The notes under the pieces: generated by a model | Databases searched by the model: none | Told to the model about the DNA's origin: nothing | Seen by the model: the letters and a program-made list of their open reading frames with translations, nothing else | Program-made: the position numbers and the translations under genes | Part shown: in pieces, positions 34,079 to 39,542 of the stretch | How the letters are laid out: each line of letters starts with the position of its first letter | How positions within the stretch are numbered: the first letter of the stretch is position 1 | Sequence record: SRR20825006_1527 | Reading direction: 5' to 3' (one strand) | DNA length: 48,310 nucleotides

Positions 34079-36874
34079 CTAAAAGTTTAAAATGTAATCT
34101 ATAAGGTTATCGTGGTGCGGCAGGTCGAACTTTTTACGGAGCCTATAGCGCTTCATTTCTACACTTTTTACCGATATATTCAGCAATGGTGCAATCTCTT
34201 TGGAGGAAAGATTCAGCCTTAAATAGGCACACAATCTTAAATCGTTATTGGTTAGACTATCGTGTTTACTCTTGATTCGCTTTAAAAAGTCCTTGTCCGC
34301 ATTGTTGAATGCGTCTTCAAAGAACTTCCAATCATCTTCGCTGTTTATGTTCTGGTCTATTTCCCTAATTACTGATCGAATATTCCTGTCCTTATTGGGC
34401 ACCTCCTTAAGTTGAGATTTTAGGGAGGAAAGAAATTTGTTTTTCTTTACTAGGCTCATGGTAGAGATAGCGAGTTCGCGATTTTTGTTTTCAATCTCAT
34501 TTTGAAGTTTCTCTGTCTGGATTTGCGCTATACGTTCTTTCTTTTCCAGTTCCCTTCGCTCAAGTTCTTTGCGGTTCTTTTTAATTAGTGATTCCTGCTT
34601 TTTCTGGTAATAATTATTGTAAAGTCTGTGCACCAAAATAAACACCGATCCAATGGTCACCATGTAAATCAAAAGTGCAAGATTTGATAGGTACCATGGG
34701 CGCAATATGGTGAAACTGTAAGAAGCGGTATTTTCACTCAGGTTACTGCCCACCATCGCCCTAACGGTAAAGGTATAATCTCCAAAGGAAAGGTTTTTGA
34801 ACGTGACCTCGGTGTTTTCGGACCATTCGCTCCAACCTTCGTACAGGTTCTCCATTTTATACTGGTACCGGACTTCGGTATATTTATCAAACTCAGGGAC
34901 ACTGTACTCGATTCTAATATTATTGTTGACATATTCAAATGCTCCTTTGGTATCTTTTGCAGCTTTAAAATCCAGTTCTTGATAGTCTCCGAAATAAACG
35001 GAATTTATCTGCACTTCTTGTTTGGAAGGTTCTACCTTGGTCAGGTCTAGGGATACAAAACCGTTGGAACTCCCTATCAAATATTTGAAATCGGATATTT
35101 TTGAGATGTTCTCAAATCCTGAAACCCCAAAATTGGCACGAATGTCCTGGGGAATGGAAATATGGGAAGAGTTCAGTTTGTTGCTAAGGGTGCTTAGAGT
35201 AACGTATTGGAGTCCGTATTTTGTGAAAAACCAAAGCCGCTGCTCAGAGTTTTCTGGAATAATGATGCTGACCTGCGCATCATCTTGATTAAAAATTGTT
35301 TGGGTCATGGTGCTGTCCATCTCAATATTATTTTCTCCATTAATATTATAGATTCCAGCATTTGTTTTATAATAAAGTTCATCCAGAAAACTGAAGATAT
35401 TAGAACTGTGACCGATACGTTCTACATTGGTTACTTGTTTGACTTCTCTGAAGCTTGGGTCGAGCTCGATAAAATACAGTCCTTTTTTTTCATGGTCCAC
35501 AACTACTTGAAGGGAATCCATCTCAAAAAAACGACTTGAAATTGTGAAACCATCGATGGTATTGCGGAGTTTCCATGAACCTTCTACCTTTTCAAGAATG
35601 CTCAAACCATTATAGTTTCCCTGTAACAAAAGTTCCTCATGACCTTTTATCGGTTTTACGCCCCATGTTCCGGGGTAATCAGAGATAAGTTTTGCTTGGT
35701 TATTATCGATAATGAAGGTCCCATTGTTGTGCCCACAGAAAACAGTGGAATCCAAAAGTTGAAGGTTCCAAACCTGCCCTTCGGTTCCATCAATCAAACT
35801 AAAATTGTCTTGTGAAGCCGTCTCACGATAAAACAGACCTTGATTGGTGCCCAAATACAAGTGTCCTTCGTGGTTCAATGCGGCGTATACCAGCCCAAGG
35901 TTGCCCAATTTGTCGACGTATTCATTAAAGGGGGAGTAGAGGTTTACGGTCGCAATACCGTTGTCCAGACCAAGCCATAAGTTGTTTTCAGCATCTTCAA
36001 AAAGGGATAGAACCGTATTGTTGTTCAATCCTTTTTCCTGGTCGATGTTCCGAATGATAGTCTCACCATCCGGTGAGAGGTGATAAAAACCGTTGGATAT
36101 GCTACCGAGCACAAAAGAACTATCGTTTAGTCGAATGCTGCTATATAGTTTGATGTTCAAATCATCCATGGCGGTTTCCCAGGGAGTGACATTTTCCGAA
36201 TCGTATCTGTAAAACCGAGAACTTTCGGTAAGTATCAACAGATCATTTCCAACACCGTACAGCCCAACCATGGGTTCTTTCGTAAAAACAGGGTCGTTGC
36301 TAATCAATTGTGCCTCTCCATTCTGGATGGTGAACAAACCTTCTTTAGCAATTTGAAAATAAACATTGTTGTTTACCACGCCCATGTTTGCCTTGTCCGA
36401 TTTTGCTTCGATCACCTTAAAGCTGCTTTCAAGGTTGTCATAGATATAGATTCTGTCCAGTGATTGGAAAAGGACCCATTGGTCCAGGACAACAATATCC
36501 CAAAATTCTTCGTCCTCGGAAATGGGGTTCTCCATTTTTTGGGATAATGAGGTATATATGAGCTCACCATTTGCTTTTTTTGTCCAAAAACCAAATTCAC
36601 GGTAGGATCCTATGTAAATTTTGTCTCCAACAGCCTTTACTGATCGTATTATGGGTGAGGTGGGGAGCTTATATTGATGCCACTTGCTTCCATCAAACTC
36701 CAAAAGACTGGTATGGTTTGCTACATAAATGTTCTTTGAAGGGGATTGTGTGATTCCCCAATTCTGAAATTCCCCATTATATTCCTTTGGGGTATAATTT
36801 TTAATGGGGGGAAGCTCCTGACCAACTAGCGTTGAAGAAAATACAAATAATAAAAAAGCGATTAGGAGTCTCAA
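34079..36874 (-). CDS. Membrane-spanning PUL sensor-regulator (beta-propeller, Y_Y_Y domain, TM, coiled coil, LuxR-type HTH)
   Basis: TTG start and signal peptide; GLNNNTVLSL...NLWLGLDNG; YQYKMENL...FKNLSFGDYTFTVRA; ILRPWYLS TM; LTNNDLRLCAYLRLNLSSKEIAPLLNISVKSVEMKRYRLRKK. No kinase or receiver domain. Confidence 0.9.
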   Translation of the reverse strand: MRLLIAFLLFVFSSTLVGQELPPIKNYTPKEYNGEFQNWGITQSPSKNIYVANHTSLLEFDGSKWHQYKLPTSPIIRSVKAVGDKIYIGSYREFGFWTKKANGELIYTSLSQKMENPISEDEEFWDIVVLDQWVLFQSLDRIYIYDNLESSFKVIEAKSDKANMGVVNNNVYFQIAKEGLFTIQNGEAQLISNDPVFTKEPMVGLYGVGNDLLILTESSRFYRYDSENVTPWETAMDDLNIKLYSSIRLNDSSFVLGSISNGFYHLSPDGETIIRNIDQEKGLNNNTVLSLFEDAENNLWLGLDNGIATVNLYSPFNEYVDKLGNLGLVYAALNHEGHLYLGTNQGLFYRETASQDNFSLIDGTEGQVWNLQLLDSTVFCGHNNGTFIIDNNQAKLISDYPGTWGVKPIKGHEELLLQGNYNGLSILEKVEGSWKLRNTIDGFTISSRFFEMDSLQVVVDHEKKGLYFIELDPSFREVKQVTNVERIGHSSNIFSFLDELYYKTNAGIYNINGENNIEMDSTMTQTIFNQDDAQVSIIIPENSEQRLWFFTKYGLQYVTLSTLSNKLNSSHISIPQDIRANFGVSGFENISKISDFKYLIGSSNGFVSLDLTKVEPSKQEVQINSVYFGDYQELDFKAAKDTKGAFEYVNNNIRIEYSVPEFDKYTEVRYQYKMENLYEGWSEWSENTEVTFKNLSFGDYTFTVRAMVGSNLSENTASYSFTILRPWYLSNLALLIYMVTIGSVFILVHRLYNNYYQKKQESLIKKNRKELERRELEKKERIAQIQTEKLQNEIENKNRELAISTMSLVKKNKFLSSLKSQLKEVPNKDRNIRSVIREIDQNINSEDDWKFFEDAFNNADKDFLKRIKSKHDSLTNNDLRLCAYLRLNLSSKEIAPLLNISVKSVEMKRYRLRKKFDLPHHDNLIDYILNF

Positions 36875-37011: not shown

Positions 37012-37869
37012 CTACTTATGTTTTGGTTCCCAAATAAGTCGCAAAAATGAACTGAAACGCTCATTCTCCCTGCTAATGGGAACTCCCGCGATAATGCCTA
37101 TCATTAAATTATCAGCGATTCCGAGTCGCATTTGGGGGCGCATGGTCATATCAAAATCACTGCCCTCCCAGATTTTGTTGAACTCTACCCCAATAAAGTT
37201 CCGTGTACCGGGAATCATGTAGTGGAAACTAGTGTTAACATCGTAGGATGTATGTACTTCCCCGCTTTCGTATTCGTGACCTATCATAGGACCGGTATAC
37301 ACCAAGGAGTGGAAATTGTTGCCCCATCGTTTGGCAACCACTAAGAAAGGGTTGTATACATTTCCAGAAATCAAGGGCTTGCCAAAATTTCTGAAGTCCG
37401 ATAGTTCGAACTCATTGATATATCCGATTGCCATCGAAGTGGCCAGTCGTTCATTTACAAAGAACGACCATTGAGTCGCTATTTTTATACTGTTCAATCT
37501 ATTGGAAGGTGTTTCGACCCCGCCATTGTCCGCCAACGGAGAATAAAAGGTAAAGGGCAGCTCCACTTCAAGGCCCAACCTATCCATTGGGGCCCATTCG
37601 TACTCGATAAGAGCTTCGTAGGAATCAAAAGTGAGCTCGTCTGTCAGCCCCAATCCAAGGTTCCATTCCCGTTCCCCTTTTCGCGCACCCAGGTCACGTA
37701 TCAGGTCAATATATAAGGGTTCTGCGTGCAGCACCTTGGCAGGTTGTTTTTTTTTCTCGATTTGATTTATGTAAAGACTGTCTTTTGCGGTATTACTAAT
37801 TTGGGAATAAGCTATACTGGATGATGCCAATAGAACTATCGGCATCATATTTTTTATGATGTTTTTCAT
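37012..37869 (-). CDS. HAEPLYID-family protein (probable outer-membrane beta-barrel, function unknown)
   Basis: Signal peptide; KVLHAEPLYIDLIRDLGARKGERE; alternating amphipathic strands; C-terminal FLRLIWEP. Confidence 0.82.
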   Translation of the reverse strand: MKNIIKNMMPIVLLASSSIAYSQISNTAKDSLYINQIEKKKQPAKVLHAEPLYIDLIRDLGARKGEREWNLGLGLTDELTFDSYEALIEYEWAPMDRLGLEVELPFTFYSPLADNGGVETPSNRLNSIKIATQWSFFVNERLATSMAIGYINEFELSDFRNFGKPLISGNVYNPFLVVAKRWGNNFHSLVYTGPMIGHEYESGEVHTSYDVNTSFHYMIPGTRNFIGVEFNKIWEGSDFDMTMRPQMRLGIADNLMIGIIAGVPISRENERFSSFLRLIWEPKHK

Positions 37870-37875
37870 GTATTC

Positions 37876-37952
37876 TGATTTGTTTTATGTGAATGTTGAA
37901 TTGCCCGGACCTTATGGTGAAAAGGGACGGGTTTGATTAAGAAAACAAATCA
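37876..37952 (-). promoter_or_regulatory. Putative translational-attenuation hairpin linking the upstream ORF stop to the HAEPLYID initiation region
   Basis: Perfect 11-bp inverted repeat at 37876-37886 and 37942-37952 (the latter includes the TGA stop), plus inner stem CCCG..CCTT / AAGG..CGGG (37904-37931). Confidence 0.55.
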
Positions 37953-38336
37953 TACTTCGGGAGGAGGGGTGTCCTTTTGGATGTATAGATGGGTCAAGAG
38001 AGAGTTCTTATCCGGAAATTTTTTCTTTTTACCCATCAAAATATGGTATCGGGAATAATCATGATTGGGTTGATGTACGGTAAGCTTAATTTTAAAACTG
38101 GAACCGCTATTATGGTCTTCTTTATCAGGGTCGTCGTATTCTTTAAATACATCCCCGTATCCTAGCACCTTTTCAACCAAAATCTCGATAATACTCTCTT
38201 GGTCGTTAACGGATAGGTCTTCGGGAACATGATCGGGATACCGGTCCGGCGAATCCACACTGATGTTCAATAGGTAAAGGCCCATCAAACTCCAGAATAT
38301 CTTTAGAAAAGCGCTCTTTCGTAAAAGACCTATCAT
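37950..38336 (-). CDS. Hypothetical 128-aa protein with N-terminal hydrophobic segment, acidic/His-containing middle and C-terminal TPPP (candidate regulatory leader ORF)
   Basis: MIGLLRKSAFLKIFWSLMGLYLLNISVD...EDLSVNDQESIIE...EYDDPDKEDH...QKDTPPPEV; co-oriented between the MFS and HAEPLYID genes. Confidence 0.78.
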   Translation of the reverse strand: MIGLLRKSAFLKIFWSLMGLYLLNISVDSPDRYPDHVPEDLSVNDQESIIEILVEKVLGYGDVFKEYDDPDKEDHNSGSSFKIKLTVHQPNHDYSRYHILMGKKKKFPDKNSLLTHLYIQKDTPPPEV

Positions 38337-38345
38337 GCTGTAAAA

Positions 38346-39542
38346 CTAAGACTCTTTTTTTCTTTTAGATAATTTATCCATGTAAAGAATCACAATACCT
38401 ATAACACCACCGATACAGGCCAAAACTCCGCCAACAACACTAGCGTAATTGAATCCTAGTCCAAAAACCATGGGCAGACCGCCAAAATATGCGCCCGAGG
38501 CATTTCCCATATTAAAAGCGCTTTGGTTCATGGAAGACCCTAGTTTCTCTGCGCCCTTGGCAGCTCTTATGATGGCTATTTGGATGGGTGCCGAAATGGA
38601 AAAGGTAATAACGCCGACAATAAAGCTAAGTACGTATATGGCAATGTTGTTGCTTGCGAAAATGGAGTTCAGCAGAAGTATCATCGTCATGCTAAACATG
38701 CTTATGACCACGGATTTTACGGGATTGAAAGTTTCGACCATTCTCGCTCCCAAAAAATTCCCAAAAAACATCCCAAATCCTGCTACGATCATAACGTATC
38801 CAACGTTTGCTTCGGGAAGCTTGGTTACATTGATTACCAAAGGGGCAATGTAGCTGTACCAGGCAAAAAAGCCGCCGGTGCCCACAGTGGTCAAGGCAAT
38901 CAAAGCCCATAGTTTTTTGTTTTTTAGGCCGGGTGAAGGGTTTTTAGAGTCGGAATCATCAGCTTCATCCAATCCTTCTTTTGGCATCCAAAAATAAAGG
39001 CTGCAAAAGGTGGCAATACCAGCAACTCCTACCAACATAAAAGAGTAGCTCCAATGCAGTTCTTGTCCAATATATGTGCCTAGCGGCACCCCTATAATAT
39101 TGGCGACGGTCAAACCTGAAAACATTACGGCCATGGCCTGAGCAGCTTTGCCCGGTTTGGCCAAATAACCCGATACCACGGCACCAATACCAAAAAATGC
39201 ACCGTGTGGCATACCGGAAAGAAAACGGAAAACCATCATTGTCCAATAATTGCCCGAAAAGGCCGACAATGTGTTGAAAATGGTAAACCAAACCATTAAG
39301 AAAAGCAAGGTTTTCTTTGGATTGAGGTTGTTGGTGATTCTTGCCATTACGGGCGCACCTATAACTACCCCAAGGGCATAGATGGCTATGAAATGTCCCG
39401 CTTTAGGAATGGAAATATCAAGAGAACCGGCAATATTGGGAAGAATTCCCATGATTACAAATTCTGTAAGGCCTATGCCGAAACCACCGATGGCGAGAGA
39501 TAAAAGGGCTTTTTTATTGGTTGATCGTGAAGTCTTGTCCAA
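38346..39542 (-). CDS. MFS transporter, DHA1 / AraJ-like
   Basis: LLSLAIGGFGIGLTEFVIMGILP, FRFLSGMPHGAFFG, GLTVANIIGVPLGT, SAFNMGNASGA; about 12 TM segments; TTG start. Confidence 0.9.
   Translation of the reverse strand: MDKTSRSTNKKALLSLAIGGFGIGLTEFVIMGILPNIAGSLDISIPKAGHFIAIYALGVVIGAPVMARITNNLNPKKTLLFLMVWFTIFNTLSAFSGNYWTMMVFRFLSGMPHGAFFGIGAVVSGYLAKPGKAAQAMAVMFSGLTVANIIGVPLGTYIGQELHWSYSFMLVGVAGIATFCSLYFWMPKEGLDEADDSDSKNPSPGLKNKKLWALIALTTVGTGGFFAWYSYIAPLVINVTKLPEANVGYVMIVAGFGMFFGNFLGARMVETFNPVKSVVISMFSMTMILLLNSIFASNNIAIYVLSFIVGVITFSISAPIQIAIIRAAKGAEKLGSSMNQSAFNMGNASGAYFGGLPMVFGLGFNYASVVGGVLACIGGVIGIVILYMDKLSKRKKES

Follow-up and report, generated by a model that had tools for sequence, protein, structure and literature searches.

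A candidate CutF-like stalling leader, in an unrelated protein family, ahead of an outer-membrane channel gene of Bacteroidota

Why should the stop codon of a short gene be complementary to the region that precedes the start codon of the next gene? The question is raised by a two-gene cassette on the minus strand of a 48,310-nt stretch of DNA from sequence record SRR20825006_1527, which was analyzed as a whole and is called the window below. The first gene is a small open reading frame (ORF) that ends with three consecutive prolines (PPP) two codons ahead of its stop, and the second encodes a member of the HAEPLYID family. We propose, with a probability of roughly 60% and by analogy, that the cassette works like CutF-cutO of Rhodobacter capsulatus, by translation-dependent unmasking with PPP as a programmed pause; synthesis of the channel encoded by the second gene would probably be confined to the time during which a ribosome occupies the end of the small gene. 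The small ORF would then be a new variant, a CutF-like stalling leader in an unrelated protein family, with the pause as its proposed element. This interpretation is supported as far as computation reaches.

The small ORF ends ACC CCT CCT CCC GAA GTA TGA, with its stop at 37952-37950. We found that TGATTTGTTTT (37952-37942), which consists of the stop codon and the next 8 nt, is the exact complement of AAAACAAATCA (37886-37876). The arms of this inverted repeat are 11 nt long, 100% complementary and 55 nt apart, and the 3' arm lies at -17 to -7 from the HAEPLYID ATG at 37869. The minimum-energy fold of 37975-37860 contained this outer helix, which GUA/UAC pairing extends beyond an internal loop of 3 nt, and an inner hairpin at 37931-37904. 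This fold had an energy of -19.8 kcal/mol as compared to -13.45 +/- 2.56 for shuffled sequences (z -2.48; 4 of 200 shuffles folded as well), and a perfect inverted repeat of at least 11 nt anywhere in the 116 nt was seen in 3 of 2000 dinucleotide-preserving shuffles. A first-pass annotation of the window had placed the ORF, both arms, an inner GC stem and the PPP before the stop, and had suggested folding 37860-37975 (minus strand); all of its coordinates hold, the fold of that segment contains the helix, and the outcome of each computational check that it proposed speaks for it. A single window sequence is modest evidence, and it is the comparison between loci that makes the case a strong one.

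In nearly every locus the stop-codon region was complementary to the stretch before the HAEPLYID ATG, with arm sequences that varied between loci. Most loci paired TGATTTGTTTT with AAAACAAATCA, as in the window; TAATTTGTTTT was matched by AAAACAAATTA in L005 and others, TAATTGTTAA by TTAACAATTA in L007, TAATCTTTT by AAAAGATTA in L011 and GATTTTAGTTAA by TTAACTAAAATC in L014. Covariation was counted in an 86-sequence alignment, with the outer helix specified by hand and the inner hairpin as given by RNAalifold. Over the whole structure, 89.8% of the cells were paired as compared to 84.7% after shuffling, and the covariation score was 0.235 versus 0.147; neither value was reached in 500 shuffles. 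When the partners were slid by 1-3 columns, pairing fell to 37-60%. Since sequence relatedness inflates the shuffle statistics, these slid controls and the independent arm sequences are the stronger argument. The outer helix was 93.9% paired, with changes on both sides in 5 of its 10 pairs. The pair at the second base of the stop codon was GC in 71 sequences, AU in 10 and GU in 4 and was never unpaired, and at every TAA stop the partner of the second base was U. All six pairs of the inner hairpin showed changes on both sides, and its mismatch pattern on the mRNA strand (73 G-U versus 23 A-C) was as expected of RNA. The pairing of stop and initiation region, whose covariation the first-pass annotation had named as a check, thus covaries in these 86 sequences, and it recurs with other arms before other downstream genes, as described below. 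A search of 37700-38500 against Rfam gave four matches, all far under their gathering scores (best 21.6 bits versus 100), and hence no known RNA family. A separate 13-nt inverted repeat at 37821-37848 (92% complementary, arms 2 nt apart) lies inside the HAEPLYID signal-peptide coding sequence, 22-49 nt after the start codon, where it may add structure around the start.

The small ORF had no Pfam match (E <=0.1) and no NCBIfam match. A word-indexed search returned 80 relatives among 82 candidates, every one annotated hypothetical, from genera that include Flagellimonas, Winogradskyella, Psychroflexus, Reichenbachiella and Fluviicola. A profile search extended the family to at least 910 clusters (50% identity, E <=1e-3), nearly all from Bacteroidota, with 590 at E <=1e-10. 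Among 35 aligned members the invariant residues were Y21, L23, N24, N44, Q46, E47, S48, E51, E55, G59 and P124-P126, so that the terminal PPP was unchanged in 35 of 35. We further compared 97 loci (L001-L098 minus L015). PPP stood near the C-terminus in 95 of them (one of the others had TPP and one was unresolved), and the last proline triplet was followed by two residues in 93, by three in one and by four in one. Of 142 near-full-length representatives, 134 carried PPP within the last 15 residues, and five of the remaining eight carried PP. The triplet was encoded by 24 codon combinations, which indicates that selection acts on the amino acids. The consensus tail is PPPK[IV]-stop, and that of the window is PPPEV-stop. 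The stop codon was TGA in 82, TAA in 15 and TAG in none of the 97 loci; the G of TGA pairs with the C of the 3' arm, and either the helix or the speed of termination may limit which stop codon is used.

Gap and start-site counts omitted L015 (no tblastn match to the window protein), L094 (in-frame stop, unresolved) and L006 (HAEPLYID start unresolved). The small ORF was exactly 128 amino acids long in 82 of 93 loci. Its linker (residues 81-120) had codon-position entropies of 1.33/1.14/1.62 as compared to about 0.6/0.3/1.3 in the conserved parts. AlphaFold2 modeled the small protein with a predicted local distance difference test score (pLDDT) of 56, with a helix at 9-26, a short one at 49-57 and disorder elsewhere. 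Over the 142 representatives, residues 1-12 held on average 2.5 K+R versus 0.25 D+E, and residues 28-80 held 14.3 D+E versus 3.3 K+R; this charge pattern around helix 9-26 fits an N-in, C-out topology. Being predicted mostly disordered, with a linker free in sequence and fixed in length, the small protein looks like a leader or sensor rather than a folded subunit. The window protein has no Cys, the family has no invariant Cys or His, and 41 of the 142 representatives lack Cys entirely. A complex prediction of HAEPLYID 24-285 with small-protein residues 28-128 (score 0.00, mark 0.34) gave no evidence either way. The first-pass annotation had read the N-terminus of the window's ORF as an export-like segment, an assignment with which the modeled helix and the positive-inside charges agree. 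Of the two features that it had proposed to examine in homologs, conservation of the terminal prolines was found in all of the sets above, and conservation of their distance to the stop in the 97 loci. It had not recognized the family as a described arrest peptide; there is indeed no Pfam or NCBIfam model for it, and the word HAEPLYID was not found in the literature searched.

Next to the proline codons lies the helix. A contiguous helix of at least 8 bp was present in 91 of 103 distinct loci, and in 88 of these 91 its 5' edge fell 0-7 nt after the last proline codon. Where 3-6 residues follow PPP (L014, L016, L106, L107 and L114), the helix shifts into the coding sequence and again begins 0-6 nt from PPP. 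The position of PPP is therefore tied to the helix and not to the C-terminus. Counted from the first base in the P site, a ribosome covers some 12-15 nt of downstream mRNA. With this footprint and the helix edge so near PPP, a ribosome on the proline codons would already be within the helix, and at the stop codon it would cover the whole 5' arm. We estimated the effect on the start region by a partition function over 86 loci, in which ribosome-held bases were forced unpaired; the values are thermodynamic estimates at 37 C. The mean unpaired probability of the start region (-18..+5) was 0.38 in the free mRNA, 0.54 with Pro125 in the P site, 0.65 with Pro126 in the P site and 0.71 with the stop codon in the A site.

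The 285-amino-acid product of the second gene matched the NCBIfam model NF041634 "HAEPLYID family protein" with an E of 6.2e-126 (419 bits versus a cut-off of 125), and it had no Pfam match, including PF13557. An AlphaFold2 model built on a 30-sequence alignment (pLDDT 75, predicted template-modeling score 0.69) consisted of a signal-peptide helix and 12 strands, with the N-terminal segment of residues 27-57 modeled at pLDDT <50. The best matches in the PDB by Foldseek were FapF (5o67, 5o65 and 5o68) and the COG4313 channel 4rl8, with E of 2.5e-8 to 1e-7, template-modeling scores of 0.55-0.63 and 7-14% identity. On the strength of the model and these matches, we read the HAEPLYID protein as a predicted 12-strand outer-membrane channel with an uncharacterized substrate. 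The gene lies downstream on the same strand in 95 of the 97 loci. The gap to it is 80 nt in the window and 75-83 nt in 87 of 93 loci. In one further locus, L099 (G620:C46), the gap is 356 nt instead of about 78, and the stop arm and its complementary stretch at -21..-1 of the ATG are kept, which suggests an insertion into the loop of the helix. A third conserved gene was sought around the pair, and no neighbor family occurred in more than four of the loci examined among L019-L098; the four loci that share one belong to the closest Flagellimonas relatives. Sampling of the window's family turned up the small ORF in 16 of 301 genomes, and sampling of the phylum in 18 of 401; HAEPLYID is about 74% identical across orders. 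The pair is a patchily distributed, self-contained two-gene cassette.

The same design was found before other genes. A profile search across the phylum gave distant small ORFs that share an N-terminal hydrophobic segment and a tail like [FY]x[ED][IV]x[ST]PPP[KE]x. Ahead of an OEP/TolC-like gene (L105), the stop region formed an 11-bp helix ending at -1 of the AUG, and ahead of a gene for an HlyD_D23 membrane-fusion protein (L013) it formed a 13-bp helix over the AUG. Among loci with an ATP-binding cassette (ABC) exporter downstream, L108 had 12 bp and L107 was likewise paired. Of three loci with a Phenol_MetA_deg (COG4313-type) barrel downstream (L109, L110 and L115), the first two had 12 and 10 bp over the AUG, and a SulP permease gene followed in L113 and L114. 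No stop/start helix was found in the ABC-linked L015 and L018, in the SulP-linked L113 or in L103, in which HAEPLYID is the downstream gene. Ranking of duplex energies against background windows was uninformative, the arm holding GC-rich proline codons that pair with many coding windows, and it was replaced by a permutation test on contiguous helices. In 25 loci the mean helix between cognate arms was 8.52 nt as compared to 6.04 nt between non-cognate arms (0 of 20000 permutations), and in the 11 loci with a downstream gene other than HAEPLYID the values were 8.27 and 5.43 nt (0 of 20000).

Some of these distant loci have features of their own. In L015 (G234:C34), which is ABC-linked, it is the codons for proline and lysine (CCUCCAAAAUC) that are paired, with UUUUGGAGG some 54 nt ahead of the ABC ATG, rather than the stop region with the start region. 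The small ORFs of L109, L110 and L115 carry Cys/His clusters (C..C..C, HKDHDMDSH) and an SPPPKA-stop tail and lie 150-247 nt upstream of the Phenol_MetA_deg barrels. For L109 and L110, the barrel gene's AUG and first codons form the complement of the stop arm. The acidic cluster EYDDxDxEDHN of the HAEPLYID-linked family aligns with HHH or Cys/His clusters of the TolC- and COG4313-linked relatives at 15-20% identity. This alignment hints at cation binding and does not establish it.

How the cassette is transcribed was examined through promoter motifs. The Bacteroidetes -7 box TAnnTTTG stood exactly at -12 from the small-ORF start in 54 of 93 loci, and in the gap between the small ORF and HAEPLYID it was found in 1 of 93. 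A promoter of HAEPLYID's own within the gap, which the first-pass annotation had named as a finding that would speak against its proposal, was rejected on these motif grounds, the sigma-A box alone having been considered. The -7 box of F. johnsoniae is reported to span -12 to -5 with 4-5 nt to the transcription start (PMC6847099), and the same placement is reported for F. psychrophilum, in which 5.5% of the mRNAs are leaderless (PMC9723704). With its box at -12 of the start codon, the transcript is predicted to begin at the start codon, and the cassette mRNA is thus a predicted leaderless one. The start codon of the small ORF was GTG in 70, ATG in 16 and TTG in 7 of 93 loci; a conserved leaderless mRNA that begins with GUG, as predicted here, would be unusual. 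The window's box TAGTTTTA overlaps the stop codon of an AraJ-like gene of the major facilitator superfamily (MFS), the upstream neighbor of the cassette, and read-through from the MFS gene is therefore also possible. In many genera (L003, L023, L035, L046, L048, L054 and many more) the -7 box is preceded, at about -60 to -15 from the small-ORF start, by roughly 45 conserved nt with a consensus near TTGGTAGCCATATAAGAAAACCGACAAAAGAACG; these could bind a regulator or form an unusual element of the promoter, and the window has the MFS 3' end in their place. About a third of the database entries begin the small ORF at Met18 (a 111-amino-acid form) instead of at GTG. We rejected this start: codons 2-17 are periodic (0.89/0.61/1.15) and codon 18 is not ATG in 12 of 84, for which reasons the 128-amino-acid form is preferred. 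Adopting the GTG-started form would improve the annotation of the small ORF. The parts of the cassette are collected in Table 1.

Table 1. Parts of the two-gene cassette in the window, in order of transcription.
Feature	Positions	Strand	Remarks
Candidate sigma-A -7 promoter box TAGTTTTA	38341..38348	-	-12..-5 from small-ORF start; overlaps TAG stop of MFS gene upstream
Small ORF, 128 amino acids + TGA	37950..38336	-	Membrane anchor, acidic domain, variable linker, PPPEV tail; coding periodicity throughout
Predicted transmembrane/signal-anchor helix, residues 9-26	38259..38312	-	AlphaFold2 and positive-inside charges
Acidic segment, residues 28-76	38109..38255	-	Conserved D..D...PEDLS.NDQESIIE..EKVLGY.D..EYDD.D.EDHN
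Variable linker, residues 81-120	37977..38096	-	Sequence nearly unconstrained, length kept
Pro-Pro-Pro codons, residues 124-126	37959..37967	-	Two codons ahead of stop
Outer helix 5' arm = GTA + TGA (stop) + TTTGTTTT	37942..37955	-	Fold, inverted repeat, covariation
Inner hairpin inside outer-helix loop	37904..37931	-	Minimum-energy fold; RNAalifold consensus
Outer helix 3' arm = AAAACAAATCA + gaa + TAC	37870..37886	-	A-rich HAEPLYID initiation region without Shine-Dalgarno, -17 to -1
HAEPLYID family gene, 285 amino acids	37012..37869	-	Signal peptide and predicted 12-strand outer-membrane barrel

On the other side of the cassette, 137 nt downstream of HAEPLYID and on the same strand, the window encodes a 931-amino-acid Y_Y_Y/Reg_prop/LuxR-type regulator (34079-36874). 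This neighborhood is common only to the closest Flagellimonas relatives. Among public sequencing contigs, one RNA-labeled run covers part of HAEPLYID only and another is probably a relative's DNA; as contigs, they are silent on transcript ends, co-transcription and expression.

The observed anatomy, conservation, covariation and synteny, together with a gap that holds no promoter box, can be assembled into the following course of events. From a promoter directly at the start codon of the small ORF, a leaderless mRNA would be made and translated into the 128-residue protein, whose anchor would take up an N-in/C-out orientation and whose acidic part would be exported during synthesis. In the free mRNA, the stop codon and the following 8-11 nt would pair with the A-rich region ahead of the HAEPLYID start codon, and the inner hairpin would help to close the loop of roughly 55 nt. 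The HAEPLYID initiation region has no Shine-Dalgarno sequence and would need to be single-stranded, and from the fold and the accessibility model we infer that the outer helix masks it. Once at the PPP codons, a ribosome would have the beginning of the 5' arm within its mRNA channel, and at the stop codon the whole arm; the 3' arm would then be free and a second ribosome could initiate HAEPLYID. PPP, placed 0-7 nt before the helix, would act as a programmed pause that lengthens the open time, and the acidic domain at its fixed distance from PPP could modulate the pause via export pull or periplasmic cation binding. The pause and the sensed signal are likewise what we infer.

A wider claim, which we regard as doubtful, is that the small ORFs form a large Bacteroidota-wide class of leaderless, fixed-length sensor ORFs, independent of DUF2946, timed by pull and reused before envelope transport genes. 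The length of 128 residues would put the invariant acidic cluster (about 66-76) in or just beyond the translocon when the ribosome is on PPP, some 50-60 residues from the peptidyl-transferase center. Membrane potential or a bound periplasmic cation would set the pull on the nascent chain, which would time the opening of the start region, and the module would have been reused before outer-membrane channels, TolC-like proteins, ABC exporters, membrane-fusion proteins and SulP permeases.

Several observations weigh against a CutF-like leader at the cassette. The start region of the free mRNA is already 38% unpaired in the model at 37 C. RNAalifold, applied to the 86 intergenic regions, returned the inner hairpin only, and the A/U-rich outer helix was not in its consensus; the outer helix also had 11 G-U versus 13 A-C, which carries no strand information. 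Four of the 18 distant loci (L015, L018, L103 and L113) keep PPP without a clear stop/start helix, so that PPP may have a role independent of the helix. The N-terminal half of the small protein is conserved as strongly as that of an ordinary functional protein. Elongation factor P (EF-P), which normally resolves PPP stalls, is encoded in the window's genome. Finally, the LPPP arrest peptide of Planctomycetota is reported to arrest weakly in E. coli in vivo (PMC10987492).

Foremost among the rival explanations is that two partner proteins are simply coupled in translation, which we consider possible though rather unlikely. The small protein would be a stable inner-membrane partner of the channel, the helix would set their proportion, and PPP(K/E)x would be a structural or binding tail with nothing sensed. 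The strong conservation of the N-terminal half as protein (N44, Q46, E47, S48, E51, E55 and G59 being invariant) and the strict pairing of the small ORF with HAEPLYID fit this account. By the geometry and the accessibility model, any terminating ribosome would open the helix without a pause, and both the presence of EF-P in the genome and the persistence of PPP in the four helix-free loci speak for it as well. On the other hand, the same C-terminal motif stands before five unrelated kinds of downstream gene, which is hard to reconcile with a partner-binding tail, and the edge of the helix follows PPP rather than the C-terminus. The protein is, moreover, predicted to be largely disordered, with a linker free in sequence and fixed in length, and CutF, which has the same tail, is reported to be degraded after export and to act in cis only (PMC9973294; bioRxiv 10.1101/2025.02.05.636593).

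It is improbable that the structure acts on the transcript instead, either as a stability or processing element or as a CruR-like block of Rho-dependent termination gated by ribosome occupancy. CruR is described as acting in this way (PMC9426467), the conservation and covariation of the inner hairpin are independent of the start region, and start-region pairing is absent from three loci, linked to ABC or SulP genes, whose gaps are 179-304 nt long. Against it, almost every locus has its 3' arm at the start codon or across it, in several unrelated arm sequences, and the gap is only about 78 nt, A/U-rich and without a T-run behind the inner hairpin. That the arms are a chance match, or an inverted repeat acting in the DNA (a protein binding site, for example), was already disfavored and is very improbable: both arms are conserved in sequence in most loci and the G-U and A-C counts of the outer helix are balanced, but a repeat of this length was rare in the shuffles, the changes are compensatory across many arm sequences, the inner hairpin has its G-U excess on the mRNA strand, and the arms are anchored to the stop and start codons with a 55-nt spacing that is not operator-like.

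The CutF-like reading of the cassette would matter beyond this locus. Bacteroidota ribosomes are reported to work without Shine-Dalgarno pairing, initiation being tuned by mRNA structure and A-rich context and requiring a single strand (PMC6847099). A helix that is conserved, covaries and serves no visible purpose other than concealing such a start region would be an accessible test case for start control without Shine-Dalgarno sequences. The small-ORF family has no Cys/His metal site, and its target class differs from that of CutF. The cassette would also be the first regulatory handle on the HAEPLYID channels, which are without literature, and a condition that prolongs the pause would point to the function of the channel.

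Among known systems, the product of the second gene resembles the COG4313/Phenol_MetA_deg and FapF channels in that its model has 12 strands after an N-terminal segment; it differs from them in lacking a PF13557 match and in having its own NCBIfam model, NF041634. The small ORF can be set beside several arrest peptides. In uA_LPPP of Planctomycetota, encoded upstream of secA, toeprints are reported to put the P site on the third LPPP codon (Fujiwara et al., Nat Commun 2024, PMC10987492). With uA_LPPP, SecM, MifM and VemP the small ORF shares an exported N-terminus, here predicted, XPPP in the last 15 residues and a C-terminal arrest, here proposed, that controls the next gene. Their downstream genes are of the Sec/YidC kind, whereas a HAEPLYID barrel is found here, and their sequences are unrelated and come from other phyla. 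The Bacteroidota-specific arrest classes described in the same work end in NSP-stop or NAP-stop and not in PPPKx-stop (PMC10987492).

A nearer comparison is CruR-bfrG of Bordetella pertussis, for which a RAPP motif, Rho-dependent termination and copper recognition via CxxC are reported (Roy et al., mBio 2022, PMC9426467). Both systems have a small upstream ORF with an exported product, here predicted, a C-terminal proline motif and an outer-membrane transporter gene controlled after transcription begins, a control that is proposed here; CruR differs in having RAPP rather than PPP, a Rho read-out and copper sensing by CxxC. Small ORFs with RAPP or RGPP are described upstream of TonB-dependent receptors and metal genes, and the copper-related ones are reported to be lacking in Bacteroidota (EMBO J 2025, PMC12992588). 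In other Bacteroidota families (L118-L125) we observed weak DUF2946-like, His/Cys-rich ORFs that end in RAPP or RGPP followed by 2-4 residues and the stop, which suggests that classical CruR-like leaders exist in parts of Bacteroidota too.

The closest known system, which the first-pass annotation had not named, is CutF-cutO of the DUF2946 family (Ozturk et al., mBio 2023). CutF is described as having a signal peptide, a CxxxC copper site and the tail P109EPEGPPPRL118-stop; it needs the signal peptide and PPP, melts a stem-loop over cutO's ribosome-binding site, and loses regulation when PPP is changed to PAP (PMC9973294; bioRxiv 10.1101/2025.02.05.636593). At the level of sequence the two families have no detectable relation, and the small-ORF family is much larger. 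PF11162 (DUF2946) had no match in the window protein (E <=0.1), in 10 distant relatives (E <=10) or in the window's genome (E <=1), and hhalign of the small-ORF family against Bacteroidota DUF2946-like ORFs gave a probability of 0.2%. PF11162 was above its cut-off in 2 of 201 Bacteroidota genomes, with no match (E <=0.01) in 13 from the window's family. An ESM-feature match to a DUF2946/CzcI cluster at rank 29 (score 0.94, 123 shared features) is a lead only. The small-ORF family is also without CxxxC or a His-rich motif and has an invariant acidic motif instead, and its anchor is probably uncleaved. The masked element here is A-rich without a Shine-Dalgarno sequence, and the helix includes the stop codon. 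A leaderless mRNA with a GTG start is predicted here, the target gene encodes an uncharacterized outer-membrane barrel, and the system is known from sequence alone.

In architecture the two are alike. Each has an ORF of fewer than 150 codons directly upstream in the same operon, a gap of less than 100 nt and an exported N-terminus, here predicted. PPP is followed by two residues and the stop in both (GPPPRL-stop in CutF, PPPEV-stop in the window), and an mRNA stem-loop, again predicted here, lies over the initiation region of the next gene. Envelope or transport functions are encoded downstream, with OEP and HlyD_D23 neighbors in both families. The small-ORF family thus has the architecture of the CutF-like proteins and lacks the DUF2946 sequence and the metal motif. 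A set of 5,334 "CutF-like" proteins has been reported, to which Bacteroidota contribute 19% and whose genes precede those for OEP, HlyD_D23, ACR_tran, TonB-like and other proteins (PMC9973294); the small-ORF family may already be part of this set.

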